DNA of 64,000 bases. It comes from Pseudomonadota bacterium. GTDB lineage: Bacteria > Pseudomonadota > Alphaproteobacteria > Rhizobiales > MH13. The notes beneath the pieces were generated by a model. The model was not told the origin of the DNA. It saw nothing but the letters and a program-made list of their open reading frames with translations, and searched no databases. Both the position numbers and the translations under genes were made by a program. Location of the stretch: assembly GCA_039024915.1 (NCBI GenBank), contig JBCCPK010000008.1, positions 57,587 to 121,586 of the forward strand, given 5' to 3'. Shown here piece by piece: positions 1 through 4,043 of this stretch; position 1 is the stretch's first letter; each line of letters opens with the position of its first letter.

Positions 1-17
1 GTCGGGCCGTGTTGTTC

Positions 18-432
18 GCTCCGGTCCTTCGGACCGACCGCTTGAAAGCCAGGAGCAAAAGATATGCGGTTGTTCCGAAGGAACAGAGCAAAAGGAACGC
101 GGTTGTTCCGAAGGAACAGAGCAAAAGGAACGCGGTTGTTCCGAAGGGACAGAGCAAAAGAAATACCGGTCAGGCCGCGTTGTTGGCTCCGGTCCTGCGG
201 AACGACCGCTGGACGTTGTTTCTCATTCGCTCCGGTCCTGCGGAACGACCGCTGCACTCATCTGGCTCCGGTCCTCGGACCGACCGCTGGACGTTGTTTC
301 TCATTCGCTCCGTTCCTCCGGAACGACCGCTGGACGTTGTTTCTCATTCGCTCCGTTCCTACGGAACGACCGCTGGATTTTGACATGACACGCTATTCTT
401 ACGCGTCATTCGCTCTGTCCTTTCAGGACAAC
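18..432. repeat. Array of ten REP-like 24-nt hairpin units (consensus GCTCYGKTCC-NNN-GGAMCRACCGC) in both orientations
   Basis: Plus copies at 18, 186, 229, 265, 307, 350 and degenerate 412; minus copies at 66, 99, 132 (33-bp period). Most have a 6-bp stem and 3-nt loop, e.g. CGGTCC-TTC-GGACCG, CGTTCC-TAC-GGAACG, TGTTCC-GAA-GGAACA. The linker GGACGTTGTTTCTCATTC occurs three times. Confidence 0.92.
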
Positions 433-441
433 AACGCATGA
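64..441 (+). other. Possible repeat-encoded leader ORF (125 aa) coupled to dnaE2
   Basis: AGGAG at 51-55, 8 nt before ATG 64. The frame is open across the array and its TGA (439-441) overlaps the dnaE2 ATG (438-440). The product is low-complexity and Arg-rich with no recognisable homology, so it may not be translated. Confidence 0.3.
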
Positions 442-3400
442 CCAGGCCCCGCGAAAATCCGCCGATCCCCTTTCGCAGGCCCGCCGGCAAAAGCTCGGCC
501 GGGCTTGTGGCGCGGCCAGTCGATCCAAAAAAGACCGGCTATGCCGAACTGCAGGCCACCAGCAATTTTTCCTTTTTGCGCGGCGCATCGCACCCCGGCG
601 AGCTGGTCATCGCGGCCAAGGCACTCGGACACAGGGCGATCGCCCTGACCGATCGCAACACGCTGGCAGGCGTGGTGCGCGCGCATGAAGAGGCGAAGAA
701 GGAGGGCATCCGGTTCGTTGTGGGGGCGAGGCTTGATCCGCAAGACGGGCCATCGGTGTTGGTTTATCCCAGCAACCGGAGGGGCTACGCCAATCTCTGC
801 CGGCTGCTATCGCGCGGCAAGATGAACGCGCCGAAGGGCGCGTGCCATTTCTCCTTCGAAGACATGCTGGCGCATCTTGAAGATCAGGCGGTGATCGTGG
901 TCCCGCCGGCGCACTTTTTTGGCTCTGTTCCAGCCCAGAACGGGCTGGAACAACCGCGGGATGACACCTTCACCGATCAGCTCGTGCGAATCCGCGATGC
1001 CGCGCCGGGGCGGACCTGGCTGGCCGCGCATTACCATTTCACCGGCGACGATCGCGCCCGGCTGAACAAGCTGGCTCAGCTTTCCAGGACCACCGGGGTA
1101 CCGCTGGTGGCAACCGGCGACGTGCATTACCACGCGCCCGAACGCCGCCCTTTGCAGGACGTTGTGACCTGTATCCGCGAAAAGCTGCCGCTGGCCAAGG
1201 CAGGCTTCAAGCTCCTTGCCAATGCCGAGCGCCACCTTAAACCCGGCTTTGAAATGGCACGGCTTTTTGCCGATCATCCGGCCGCTTTAGCCGCGATCGG
1301 TGATGTGCTCGCTCTGGCCAATTTTTCGCTTGATGAGCTTGCTTACAACTACCCAAACGAGCCGGTACCCAAGGGCAAGACACCGCAGGGTCACCTCGAG
1401 GCGCTGACCCTGGAGGGTGCCAAATGGCGTTATCCTGGTGGGGTACCTGAACGTGTGCGTGCAGCGATAGACAAAGAGTTGTCCTTGATCGACGATCTTG
1501 GATACGCGCAGTATTTTCTGACCGTCCACGACATCGTCGCCCACGCCCGCAAAAAGGGTATTCTGTGCCAGGGGCGCGGTTCGGCGGCCAACTCGACGGT
1601 GTGTTACTGCCTCGGCGTCACGGCGGTCGATCCTTCCCAGACCAGCCTTCTGTTTGAACGCTTCCTGTCGCGGGCGCGCAAGGAGCCGCCCGATATCGAT
1701 ATCGATTTCGAGCATGAGCGGCGCGAAGAGGTCATCCAGTACATCTACGAGCGCTACGGTCGCCATCGCGCAGCGCTCGCCGCCACCGTCATCACCTATC
1801 GCCCACGCTCAGCGGTGCGCGAAGTGGGCAAGGTGATGGGTCTGTCGGAAGACGTCACCAACGCTCTGGCCTCGACGGTCTGGGGTTCGTGGGGCCGAGA
1901 ATTGCCCGCCGATCAGATACGGCAGGCCGGGCTCGACCTTGATGACCCGACCCTCAAACGGACCATTGAGCTGGCGCACGAACTGTTGGGCTTCCCGCGT
2001 CATCTATCACAGCATGTCGGCGGGTTTGTGCTGACCGAAGACCCGCTTGAAGAGCTGGTGCCGATCGGCAATGCGGCCATGGACGACCGCACCTTCATCG
2101 AATGGGACAAGGACGATATCGACACCTTGAAGATCCTCAAGGTCGATGTGCTGGCGCTCGGAATGCTGACCTGCATCGCCAAGGCGTTCGGGCTGATCAA
2201 GCGCCATTACGGTCTTGATTACGATCTGGCGACGCTGCCGCAGGAAGACCCCGATGTTTACGCGATGCTCCAGCGGGCCGATGCTATCGGCGTGTTTCAG
2301 GTCGAAAGCCGGGCCCAGCTCAACATGCTGCCGCGCATGAAGCCCAAGCGCTTTTACGATCTGGTTATCGAGGTTGCTATCGTGCGGCCGGGGCCGATCC
2401 AGGGCGATATGGTGCACCCCTATTTGCGGCGACGGGACGGCATTGAGACGGTCAACTACCCCTCGCCCGCGCCCGAACATGGGCCCAAGGATGAATTGGA
2501 GCGAGTGCTTGGGCGCACCTTGGGTGTACCGCTGTTTCAGGAGCAGGCGATGCAGATCGCCATCGATGCGGCGAAGTTCACCCCCGATGAAGCCAATCAG
2601 CTGCGCAAGGCGATGGCGACCTTCCGGCGCGTCGGCACGATCCACACGCTGCAGGAAAAGATGGTCGGGCGCATGGTCGCGCGCGGCTATGATCCCGAAT
2701 TTGCGGCGCGCTGCTTCAACCAAATCAAGGGCTTCGGCGAATATGGCTTTCCCGAAAGCCACGCTGCGAGCTTTGCGCTTCTAGTCTACGCCTCAAGCTG
2801 GATCAAATGCCATTTCCCCGATGTGTTTTGCGCAGCCATTCTCAACAGCCAACCCATGGGGTTCTACGCGCCCGCACAGCTGGTGCGCGATGCGCGTGCG
2901 CACGACGTGGAGGTGCGCGAAGTGGATGTGAACCAGTCGCATTGGCACAACACGCTCGAAGAGCATGAAAGCGGCGGCTTTGCCGTGCGGCTGGGGTTCC
3001 GCCAGCTCGATGGGCTGCGCGAGGATGTGATGGAGGCCTTCATGCAACGCCGAGGCAACAGGCGCCTGACCTCTATGGATGATTGCCGCCGGTGCGGCCT
3101 GTCGGTCGCGGTGCTCGAACGCCTCGCTGCCGGTGATGCGTTCCGCTCGCTCGGCCTTGACCGGCGGCAGGCCTTGTGGGCCGTGCGCGGGCTGATGTCG
3201 GACAGCCCTGCCGACCTTTTCGATGCGGCAGAAGCCGATCCCACCGGTGCGGATGTGCCCGTCACCTTACCATCGATGCCGCTGGGCGAGCACGTGGTCG
3301 CCGATTACCAGACCCAGAAATTGTCTCTCAAAGCGCACCCGATGTCGTTCCTGCGCGAGCGCTACACGGCCCAGGGCATGATCACCGCTGAGGGGCTGTT

Positions 3401-4043
3401 CCTGTCCCGGCACGGCCAGCGGGTTCGCTATGCGGGCGTTGTGCTAGTCCGCCAGAAACCGGGTACCGCCAAGGGTGTGGTCTTTATGACATTGGAGGAT
3501 GAGACCGGAACGGCGAACATCGTTGTGTGGGGCAAGATGGTCGAGAAATTCCGCCGGGTGGTGATGCAGGCGCGACTGGTCGAGGTGGTCGGCGAGGTGC
3601 AGCGCAAAGAGGATGTCATTCACATCGTCGCGCACAAGCTGATCGACCGGACCGATGATCTGTCGGTGCTGTCCGATGAGCCGCTGCCAGAAACGGTGGC
3701 CCACGCAGACCATGTCCGCAGCCCCCTGACGGGGCCCGTCAAAGCCAATGGCGACTATCGCAAGCAGCTTCGCGGCCGGGCGCGGCGCAAGAAGGATTTG
3801 CGCGAAGAAGGCGTTCTGGAGCTTCCGCTGGCCCACGCCGACGAGGTCAAAAGACCGGTCGAACAAGACACGCGCATCTCAGGTGGCGGAAAGGCTGGCT
3901 ATTTGCGGGTGCGCCGCCGACCGCTTTCGCAGGCCGGTGAACAAGCCGCGTCCGCAAAACAATCGTCAAAAGGGACGACGCCAGGGCGCGGTACCCATCC
4001 AAGGAATGTTCGGGTCATTCCCAAAAGCCGTGATTTCCATTGA
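438..4043 (+). CDS. dnaE2: Error-prone DNA polymerase DnaE2 (ImuC)
   Basis: N-terminal YAELQATSNFSFLRGASHPGELV, PHP domain, CQGRGSAANS, PDIDIDF catalytic motif, FPESHA, OB-fold TLEDETG, C-terminal SRDFH typical of DnaE2. Confidence 0.97.
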   Translation: MTRPRENPPIPFRRPAGKSSAGLVARPVDPKKTGYAELQATSNFSFLRGASHPGELVIAAKALGHRAIALTDRNTLAGVVRAHEEAKKEGIRFVVGARLDPQDGPSVLVYPSNRRGYANLCRLLSRGKMNAPKGACHFSFEDMLAHLEDQAVIVVPPAHFFGSVPAQNGLEQPRDDTFTDQLVRIRDAAPGRTWLAAHYHFTGDDRARLNKLAQLSRTTGVPLVATGDVHYHAPERRPLQDVVTCIREKLPLAKAGFKLLANAERHLKPGFEMARLFADHPAALAAIGDVLALANFSLDELAYNYPNEPVPKGKTPQGHLEALTLEGAKWRYPGGVPERVRAAIDKELSLIDDLGYAQYFLTVHDIVAHARKKGILCQGRGSAANSTVCYCLGVTAVDPSQTSLLFERFLSRARKEPPDIDIDFEHERREEVIQYIYERYGRHRAALAATVITYRPRSAVREVGKVMGLSEDVTNALASTVWGSWGRELPADQIRQAGLDLDDPTLKRTIELAHELLGFPRHLSQHVGGFVLTEDPLEELVPIGNAAMDDRTFIEWDKDDIDTLKILKVDVLALGMLTCIAKAFGLIKRHYGLDYDLATLPQEDPDVYAMLQRADAIGVFQVESRAQLNMLPRMKPKRFYDLVIEVAIVRPGPIQGDMVHPYLRRRDGIETVNYPSPAPEHGPKDELERVLGRTLGVPLFQEQAMQIAIDAAKFTPDEANQLRKAMATFRRVGTIHTLQEKMVGRMVARGYDPEFAARCFNQIKGFGEYGFPESHAASFALLVYASSWIKCHFPDVFCAAILNSQPMGFYAPAQLVRDARAHDVEVREVDVNQSHWHNTLEEHESGGFAVRLGFRQLDGLREDVMEAFMQRRGNRRLTSMDDCRRCGLSVAVLERLAAGDAFRSLGLDRRQALWAVRGLMSDSPADLFDAAEADPTGADVPVTLPSMPLGEHVVADYQTQKLSLKAHPMSFLRERYTAQGMITAEGLFLSRHGQRVRYAGVVLVRQKPGTAKGVVFMTLEDETGTANIVVWGKMVEKFRRVVMQARLVEVVGEVQRKEDVIHIVAHKLIDRTDDLSVLSDEPLPETVAHADHVRSPLTGPVKANGDYRKQLRGRARRKKDLREEGVLELPLAHADEVKRPVEQDTRISGGGKAGYLRVRRRPLSQAGEQAASAKQSSKGTTPGRGTHPRNVRVIPKSRDFH

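Follow-up and report, generated by a model that had tools for sequence, protein, structure and literature searches.

We analysed the spacer between imuB and dnaE2 (imuC), two genes of an SOS mutasome operon, at the start of a 64,000-nt stretch of a Pseudomonadota genome (the window; C8:57587-121586 of G000, the genome studied, a 35-contig draft assembly). Comparison with related genomes showed that window positions 9-437 arose in this lineage by insertion and tandem expansion of a repeat, specific to the genus, that resembles repetitive extragenic palindromes (REPs) and bacterial interspersed mosaic elements (BIMEs). The same comparison showed the 440-nt array insertion to be apparently recent, to have landed on the dnaE2 start codon, and to have split a tight ancestral junction with imuB. 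A 125-codon open reading frame (ORF) running through the array was shown to be a by-product of the repeat and not a conserved-peptide gene. The insertion, the by-product ORF and translation that passes through the array together form what is probably the best overall explanation of the locus. Pass-through translation, a ribosome relay, would be the likeliest working mode for dnaE2 expression, a proposal that we hold tentatively and with slightly less than even confidence. The features in question, by window position unless a contig is given, are:

C8:54527-55582, upstream of the window: imuA, 330 aa, aligning with the ImuA of relatives
about C8:55425-57581, upstream of the window: imuB, 718 aa, with its TAA at window -7 to -5
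9..11, + strand: GTG9, at the ancestral dnaE2 start position, opening an ORF over 9..383 in frame 0, the dnaE2 frame
18..40, + strand: REP copy 1, GCTC-CGGTCC-TTC-GGACCG-ACCG, a strict pattern match at C8:57604-57626
51..66, + strand: AGGAG (51-55), 8 nt and ATG64, the strongest ribosome-binding site of the spacer
64..441, + strand: the 125-codon ORF in frame 1, whose stop TGA 439-441 overlaps dnaE2 ATG438-440 (ATGA)
67..155, - strand: three inverted REP copies in 33-bp units, cores 67-89, 100-122 and 133-155, with + strand loops C-GAA-G
186..372, + strand: five forward REP copies, cores 186-208, 229-251, 265-286, 307-329 and 350-372, at spacings of 43/36/42/43 bp
381..388, + strand: TGAcATGA, with the frame 0 stop at 381-383, ATG385 (frame 1) and the frame 2 stop at 386-388
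385..441, + strand: an 18-codon mini-ORF, MTRYSYASFALSFQDNNA, which starts MTR like DnaE2, crosses hairpin 10 and ends in ATGA
412..432, + strand: REP copy 10, GCTC-TGTCCT-TTC-AGGACA-AC, with its hairpin at 416-430 and the Shine-Dalgarno (SD) AGGA 425-428 in the 3' arm
438..4043, + strand: dnaE2 (imuC), 1201 aa, start ATG438 set by conservation
921..957, + strand: a REP copy inside dnaE2, GSVPAQNGLEQP, in frame and with a nested hairpin in its loop

The closest relative of G000 is a Devosiaceae metagenome-assembled genome (G008), whose DnaE2 is 79% identical over the first 400 residues. Its imuB-dnaE2 junction is an empty site: the imuB TAG is followed by 8 nt and then ATG ACC AGA..., and DnaE2 starts with MTRPRENPPIPF as in G000. 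In G000 the spacer measures 442 nt, and the analysis took in all of it. The DnaE2 N-terminus MTRPRENPPIPFRRP is common to G000, G008 and a third genome, G015 (junction TAA-CC-ATG with a 2-nt spacer, N-terminus MSRPPENPPIPF), and similarity stops at the ATG. Because this N-terminus is conserved in G008 and G015, ATG438 was taken as the true dnaE2 start. When the two flanks of the G000 array were joined, they were colinear with G008, on the left through GGGCC-GTG (window 4-11) against GGGCC-ATG and on the right from C-ATGACC, which places the insertion exactly at the dnaE2 start codon. GTG9 sits 13 nt past the imuB TAA.

The imuB and dnaE2 genes overlap in at least 12 of the 16 genus genomes, by ATGA in eight and TGATG in four, and repeats at this junction were found in two of the 16 only, G000 and G013. 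Since the G008 site is empty and most genus members overlap, the array appears to have split an ancestrally coupled junction, and the comparison supports translational coupling as the ancestral expression mode of dnaE2 here. A 142-locus survey of imuB-dnaE2 spacing was used qualitatively only, as it was confounded by variable N-terminal extensions.

In the array, Tandem Repeats Finder recovered units of 33 bp (3.3 copies at 94% matches) and of 43 bp (4.7 copies at 82% matches with 10% indels). A 78-bp period with 94% identity in the array and a 72-bp dimer in imuB indicated growth by tandem duplication over evolutionary time. The motif CATGAC at 384-389 is repeated at 437-442; because of this match and the MTR beginning of the mini-ORF, the ATG385 region looks like a duplicated dnaE2 start region. 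An earlier note on this DNA had described an AGGAG 8 nt before ATG64, a frame open from there across the array to an ATGA overlap with dnaE2, TGA stops in the other two frames at 381-383 and 386-388, an in-frame ATG at 385, and units of 33 and 43 bp, and we recovered each of these.

In the repeat unit a 6-bp stem with a 3-nt loop stands between GCTC and ACCG, and the 33-bp units are inverted copies of it. The strict pattern gave 46 genomic matches vs 0 with a reversed-pattern control, and copies of the form GCTC-N15-ACCG with at least 5 of 6 Watson-Crick stem pairs numbered 58 vs 1 in a reversed-genome control. A profile search placed about 70 copies at 21 loci of G000. The stems carried compensatory changes at three positions, with pairs 1, 3 and 4 switching TA/CG, TA/GC and GC/TA (variants TGTGCC/GGCACA, TGTTCC/GGAACA, TGGGCC/GGCCCA and CGGTCC/GGACCG), and 45 of the 58 copies had TNC loops (GNA on the opposite strand). 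Every one of the 16 genus genomes carried the family, and 25 further genera of the order lacked it. A short palindrome with conserved flanks and a covarying stem, dispersed, mostly extragenic, confined to one taxon and clustered in both orientations, has the properties of REP/BIME elements. A Y1 transposase of the REP-associated tyrosine transposase (RAYT) type (PF01797) was absent from G000 and from all 16 genus genomes in searches whose positive controls matched, so the cognate RAYT that a REPIN-RAYT system requires, as a rule with REPs on its flanks, was not found. Regarding miniature inverted-repeat transposable element (MITE) features, there were no terminal inverted repeats (TIRs) beyond the hairpin; the only duplications at dnaE2 are C(A/G)TG and CATGAC, and the junction in an ATP-binding cassette (ABC) transporter operon described below has an 18-nt duplication. 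The repeat is a new RAYT-less REP/BIME-like family in the SOS mutasome operon of this lineage.

The gene order imuA, imuB, dnaE2 and an upstream LexA operator identify the operon as a mutasome cassette. By Pfam, ImuB has IMS and IMS_C domains and DnaE2 has PHP, DNA_pol3_alpha, finger, HHH_6 and OB domains; an exact-protein look-up of DnaE2 returned no record. The LexA-type box GAACAAAAGTGGAAC (GAAC-N7-GAAC) lies at C8:54410-54424, ~115 nt 5' of imuA, and the motif occurs 167 times genome-wide and is not proof by itself. Scans of the spacer and array found no sigma-70-type promoter and no GAAC-N7-GAAC LexA box, and a terminator scan of the array gave one weak terminator-like site on the + strand and none that was convincing. 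Because the LexA box stands only 5' of imuA and the spacer has no promoter or convincing + strand terminator, dnaE2 would most simply be the third gene of a single SOS-controlled transcript. An Rfam scan of 1-1200 gave one sub-threshold microRNA match, which was judged chance.

The 125-codon ORF had no homologue among 5.8 billion proteins and no Pfam match. Its codon log-likelihood ratio was -0.18 per codon vs +0.17 ± 0.06 for the gene set, and both other frames scored better. Over 1-380 hardly any stop interrupts the three forward frames: the stops are at 381 in frame 0 and at 43 and 439 in frame 1, and frame 2 runs without one from the imuB TAA to 386. At the other multi-copy arrays, 16 of 24 frames were open in the forward orientation of the repeat vs 5 of 24 in reverse, and the spacers of the family are pyrimidine-rich on the forward strand. 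What keeps the ORF open is the lack of stop triplets in all three forward frames of the repeat units and their pyrimidine-rich spacers, and the ATGA at its end is present because DnaE2 begins Met-Thr (ATG ACC), as it does in array-free G008. The open frame does not go beyond chance; the hairpins do. ATG64 lies in an ATATG stretch, and a similar stretch stands beside family copies elsewhere, including the G013 array. The AGGAG is two substitutions away from paralogous copies by tRNA-Ser genes (CACAGAGC there, CCAGGAGC here). Both the array and the ORF were missing from G008 and 13 other genus genomes, so a leader conserved among relatives was not found. A dedicated, conserved leader peptide found no support in the comparison with relatives, the homology search or the codon usage, which was non-coding. 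At most, the ORF may help ribosomes across the insertion.

The earlier note had also placed the best dnaE2 SD within the 3' arm of hairpin copy 10, and TGTCCT(416-421)-TTC-AGGACA(425-430) bears this out. The dnaE2 SD is AGGA only, 9 nt 5' of ATG438, and the relatives have no independent dnaE2 SD and rely on the overlap instead. Hairpin 10 had a predicted dG of -6.7 kcal/mol, and the SD AGGA 425-428 had an unpaired probability of 0.05-0.07 in three sequence contexts (predicted to be ~93-95% paired). The ORFs 64-441 and 385-441 both pass through hairpin 10, an arrangement that in silico corresponds to sequestration of a ribosome-binding site. Gating of dnaE2 by hairpin and leader, as first suggested, is supported in that the SD is predicted to be buried and is not supported in that no dedicated, conserved leader was found. 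The minimum free energy fold of the full spacer was -212 kcal/mol (z = -7.8), with the inverted units pairing with the forward copies at 186-372. We also observed that GTCAT 405-409 has two alternative predicted partners, ATGAC 385-389 and, across the dnaE2 start, ATGAC 438-442. These predicted pairings exclude each other, and just one of them hides the dnaE2 AUG.

Copies of the repeat occur in frame inside all three genes of the operon. The imuA gene has two 36-bp REP units near its 3' end (+24 aa, GSVPAEQPLHSPGSVPAEQPLMSP; C8:55317-55388, window about -2269 to -2198), after which the conserved ImuA C-terminus resumes, and G008 is an empty site. The imuB gene has eight units, one inverted and seven forward, with a strict 36-bp period at C8:55520-55860 (window about -2066 to -1726). 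They lie in frame in a loop after WLSIWFPRFAMDR, the IMS match resumes at residue 164, and the protein reaches 718 aa vs 522-569 aa in relatives. At the same site imuB of G008 has a degenerate half-copy only (GTGCCGACCGCTCATCTGCC), and imuB of G013 has one in-frame copy (SSVPTEQP) at a different site. The repeat-encoded ImuB segment had no homologues in proteins of similar length. In dnaE2 the insertion adds ~12-14 aa, is missing from G008, G015 and G018, and carries the nested hairpin GCTCTGTTCC-AGCCCAGAACGGGCT-GGAACAACCGC. All coding-sequence copies of the three genes read as GSVPxEQP, in-frame copies of the type known from Rickettsia palindromic elements (RPEs), a likeness that concerns the copies within genes and not the intergenic array. 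The single copy in imuB of G013 is read in that repeat frame too. Because every REP insertion in imuA, imuB and dnaE2 is in frame, the operon appears to have been kept functional. On this evidence it is still under selection, DnaE2 output evidently matters, and it follows that dnaE2 must still be translated from ATG438. The 7.1-kb operon holds ~21 of the roughly 70-75 family copies, 11 units of which are in frame inside the three genes.

Pass-through translation is proposed because the native SD is weak and buried in hairpin 10 and because coupling is ancestral. Ribosomes would enter at GTG9, the old start position, or at the strong AGGAG-ATG64 site, and while translating they would melt the array hairpins, including hairpin 10, which buries the SD. 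Those in frame 0 from GTG9 would end at TGA381, one base before ATG385; those in frame 2 would end at TGA386, which overlaps ATG385; and those in frame 1, from ATG64 or ATG385, would end at TGA439, which overlaps ATG438. Re-initiation at ATG385 and then at ATG438 would make TGAcATGA and ATGA together a frame funnel. We infer that the net outcome would be a relay robust to repeat number, and not a switch.

The G013 array at the same junction was independently placed, right after the ancestral ATGACC. There, a 99-codon ORF starts at an ATG overlapping the imuB TGA, is the only open frame across the array, and stops at ATGCCTGA on the sole plausible dnaE2 start. A further comparable site is the ATGA junction between an ABC permease gene and a 62-63-aa membrane-protein ORF (G000 C3:409420-409800), where an 18-nt direct duplication, GGGGCCGTCCGGAAATGA, which takes in the ATGA, stands on either side of a REP-bearing insertion. 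This junction is occupied in six species and empty in seven (among relatives, loci L199-L203 are occupied and L204-L205 empty). In 6 of 6 occupied species a 30-46-codon ORF runs from the old ATGA/TGATG start to a TGA over the displaced start, with start-to-start spacings of 95, 101, 89, 98, 134 and 134 nt, all 2 mod 3, so that insertions of four different lengths share one phase. A phase so uniform would be hard to get without selection on frame. The distance from ATG385 to ATG438 is 53 nt, also 2 mod 3, the same phase as in these relay ORFs.

We also observed that the ABC 18-mers are identical or nearly so within four species and show synonymous-site differences between species (concerted evolution). 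Two loci of the ABC junction, L202 (G002) and L203 (G006), have a REP within a REP loop, GCTCCGGGCTG[...GCTCTGGGC-TTA-CGCCCAACCGC...]CAGCCCGACCGC. Because of these nested copies and the one at window 921-957, the hairpin loops may themselves be insertion targets, as the arrangement suggests. At ftsA-ftsZ, two copies are crossed by a 69-codon ORF whose start lies in the last part of ftsA and whose stop is 12 nt short of the likely ftsZ ATG.

Across the genus, repeat insertions on stop/start overlaps might persist only with an ORF that carries ribosomes from the old start to the displaced one, in a frame-proof form at dnaE2. We regard this generalization as possible and put it at rather less than an even chance.

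Several points weigh against the relay. A bridging ORF, defined as one that covers at least 70% of the spacer and ends -20 to +8 of the next start in our own crude gene calls, was also present in 17-24% of repeat-free co-directional spacers (100-500 nt), and at repeat-bearing spacers bridging ORFs (3 of 5) were not significantly enriched. An ORF that is open across pyrimidine-rich repeats is in any case likely to meet its stop in a purine-rich ribosome-binding region. The relay layout at the imuB-dnaE2 locus is known from one genome only, and in that 35-contig draft the unit numbers of the 440-nt repeat array are possibly mis-assembled. The ATG64 route is not strict coupling, because ATG64 stands 66 nt from the imuB stop. 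The long duplex predicted between inverted and forward units could also block ribosomes or invite RNase cleavage.

Several of the same observations fit a different reading, in which no ribosome crosses the array and dnaE2 initiates de novo at AGGA-N9-ATG when hairpin 10 breathes. The array would then be a REP-type structure only, lowering DnaE2 relative to ImuB, and could act by protecting the 3' end of the imuAB mRNA, as an RNase III-type target in the long duplex, or through Rho-dependent polarity. The stability of that duplex (-212 kcal/mol, z = -7.8), the preference of the family for intergenic and operon-spacer sites like classical REPs, the non-coding codon usage of an ORF without homologues, and the non-significant bridging-ORF statistic all agree with it. 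However, an SD of 4 nt that is predicted to be ~93-95% paired offers such initiation little, relatives without an independent SD depend on the overlap, the other REP insertions of the operon have all been kept in frame, and relay ORFs are conserved at the ABC junction. We consider this reading doubtful on balance, with a substantial chance of being right. The earlier note had instead proposed that the leader ORF from ATG64 may gate dnaE2 and that gain or loss of 43-bp units could act as a contingency switch for mutagenesis. The AGGAG-8 nt-ATG64 site, the ATGA overlap and the position of the SD within hairpin 10 do exist, and tandem duplication has clearly enlarged the arrays over evolutionary time. 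However, TGACATGA at 381-388, which that note itself pointed out, would send shifted frames to ATG385 and on to dnaE2; because TGAcATGA hands frames 0 and 2 to ATG385, and so to the same ATGA, unit gain or loss would not uncouple dnaE2. The units are long and diverged (33-43 bp, 82-94% matches), unlike phase-variable tracts, all three frames lead to dnaE2-linked starts, and the array and ORF are missing from the closest relative, G008. A switch of this kind is very unlikely. A metagenome scan for near-identical strains with unit-number variants gave a top match that was 57% identical.

The array could also be a present or recent in-frame N-terminal extension of DnaE2 from GTG9. In that case TGA381 would have arisen recently by mutation, or would be an error of sequencing or assembly. 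In the alignment GTG9 falls on the ATG of G008, ATG438 lies 429 nt (143 codons) further on with one stop in that frame, in-frame REP arrays are tolerated in imuA, imuB and dnaE2, and the G013 array likewise lies directly after the ancestral ATGACC. However, the other two frames are equally open, a single stop per 143 codons is unremarkable, a length divisible by 3 is expected one time in three, and the conserved DnaE2 N-terminus starts at ATG438, so that we judge an extension unlikely. That ~21 of roughly 70-75 copies lie in one 7.1-kb operon might point to repeats piling up in a dying locus that decays under relaxed selection. This is highly improbable, as the three ORFs are intact (330, 718 and 1201 aa) and retain their Pfam domains, and none of the three coding-sequence insertions, which have a 36-bp (12-codon) period, breaks the frame or brings in a stop. 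Insertion with a by-product ORF and pass-through translation remains the reading that we prefer.

Elsewhere in G000 the family sites are mostly intergenic: the uvrB 3' end (C2:46195-46435), rpsO-pnp (C5:253040-253246), ftsA-ftsZ (C7:226885-226967), the ABC-transporter operon, tRNA-Ser 3' flanks and a prophage-like region. Seven copies form an array that begins at the uvrB stop codon, and six copies form another in the rpsO-pnp spacer, 94 nt 5' of pnp. Clustering of the repeats at SOS genes, which the uvrB array might also have indicated, was rejected, as the sites include rpsO-pnp, ftsA-ftsZ, leuB-asd, ABC transporters and tRNA-Ser. Paralogues of window 18-60 were found directly 3' of the tRNA-Ser(TGA) and tRNA-Ser(CGA) genes (C13:29172-29410 and C4:4356-4587), beside partial duplicates of tRNA 3' ends, and these neighbours may hint at the origin or the integration sites of the family. 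The prophage-like region (C1:75000-91000) holds ~11 REP copies, and appears, from the sequences, to encode DNA methyltransferases, a clamp-like gene and a repressor of the CI/S24 type; several ORF calls in it enter REP copies or stop just beyond them (AVVPKAQSK-type peptides).

The array bears on the amount of DnaE2 attainable after DNA damage. One repeat family splits a coupled junction, enters three genes of an SOS operon in frame, and is crossed by ORFs ending on downstream starts. If the relay is true, it shows how operons absorb selfish hairpin DNA without loss of stoichiometric expression, and it would give a simple rule, by which any insertion at an ATGA junction has to preserve an open frame in phase 2. 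If it also holds across the genus, the SOS mutasome operon would be a natural case in which genes and a repeat family have adapted to each other in translation. If it is false, the locus is an ordinary though unusually dense repeat insertion.

REP-type repeats are usually regarded as extragenic and untranslated, and they are able to make upstream mRNA more stable, to attenuate transcription and to influence how neighbouring genes are translated. Like the REP/BIME elements of enterobacteria and pseudomonads, the family described here is made up of short palindromes that are imperfect and have covarying stems between conserved flanks. It also shares with them copy numbers in the tens, restriction to a taxon, a preference for operon spacers and 3' ends, and clusters in both orientations. 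It differs in having no RAYT, a low copy number (~70), in-frame genic copies and mostly TNC loops. Termination-reinitiation at ATGA/TGATG overlaps and the unmasking of a sequestered ribosome-binding site by a leader ORF, as in the ermC leader and secM-secA, are well known. The G000 locus resembles such systems in its stop/start overlaps at 381-388 and 438-441 and in a distal SD within a hairpin that a ribosome is predicted to be able to open. However, it has no conserved leader peptide or stalling motif, and its 'leader' is repeat DNA missing from the nearest relative.

Rickettsia palindromic elements are described as selfish DNA whose insertions within protein-coding genes keep the frame (Ogata et al. 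2000, as cited in PMC10969869). Both are alphaproteobacterial palindromic families found in coding sequence in one preferred frame (GSVPxEQP here) with the host genes intact. RPEs are single elements of ~100-150 bp, whereas the G000 family has 36-bp tandem units, its in-frame copies are concentrated in one operon, and the imuB-dnaE2 array is itself intergenic. Chunjie, described in the same source as a 235-bp MITE with TIRs (PMC10969869), is likewise a small non-autonomous repeat in an operon between intact genes, and differs from the G000 family, which is without TIRs. The imuA-imuB-dnaE2 (imuC) genes form an SOS mutagenesis cassette (PMC10421592, PMC3901139, PMC6511836), which the G000 operon matches in gene order, a Y-family-like ImuB, a Pol III alpha-type DnaE2 and an alphaproteobacterial LexA box. 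It differs in carrying hairpin repeats in frame in all three genes and a 442-nt junction in place of the overlap.

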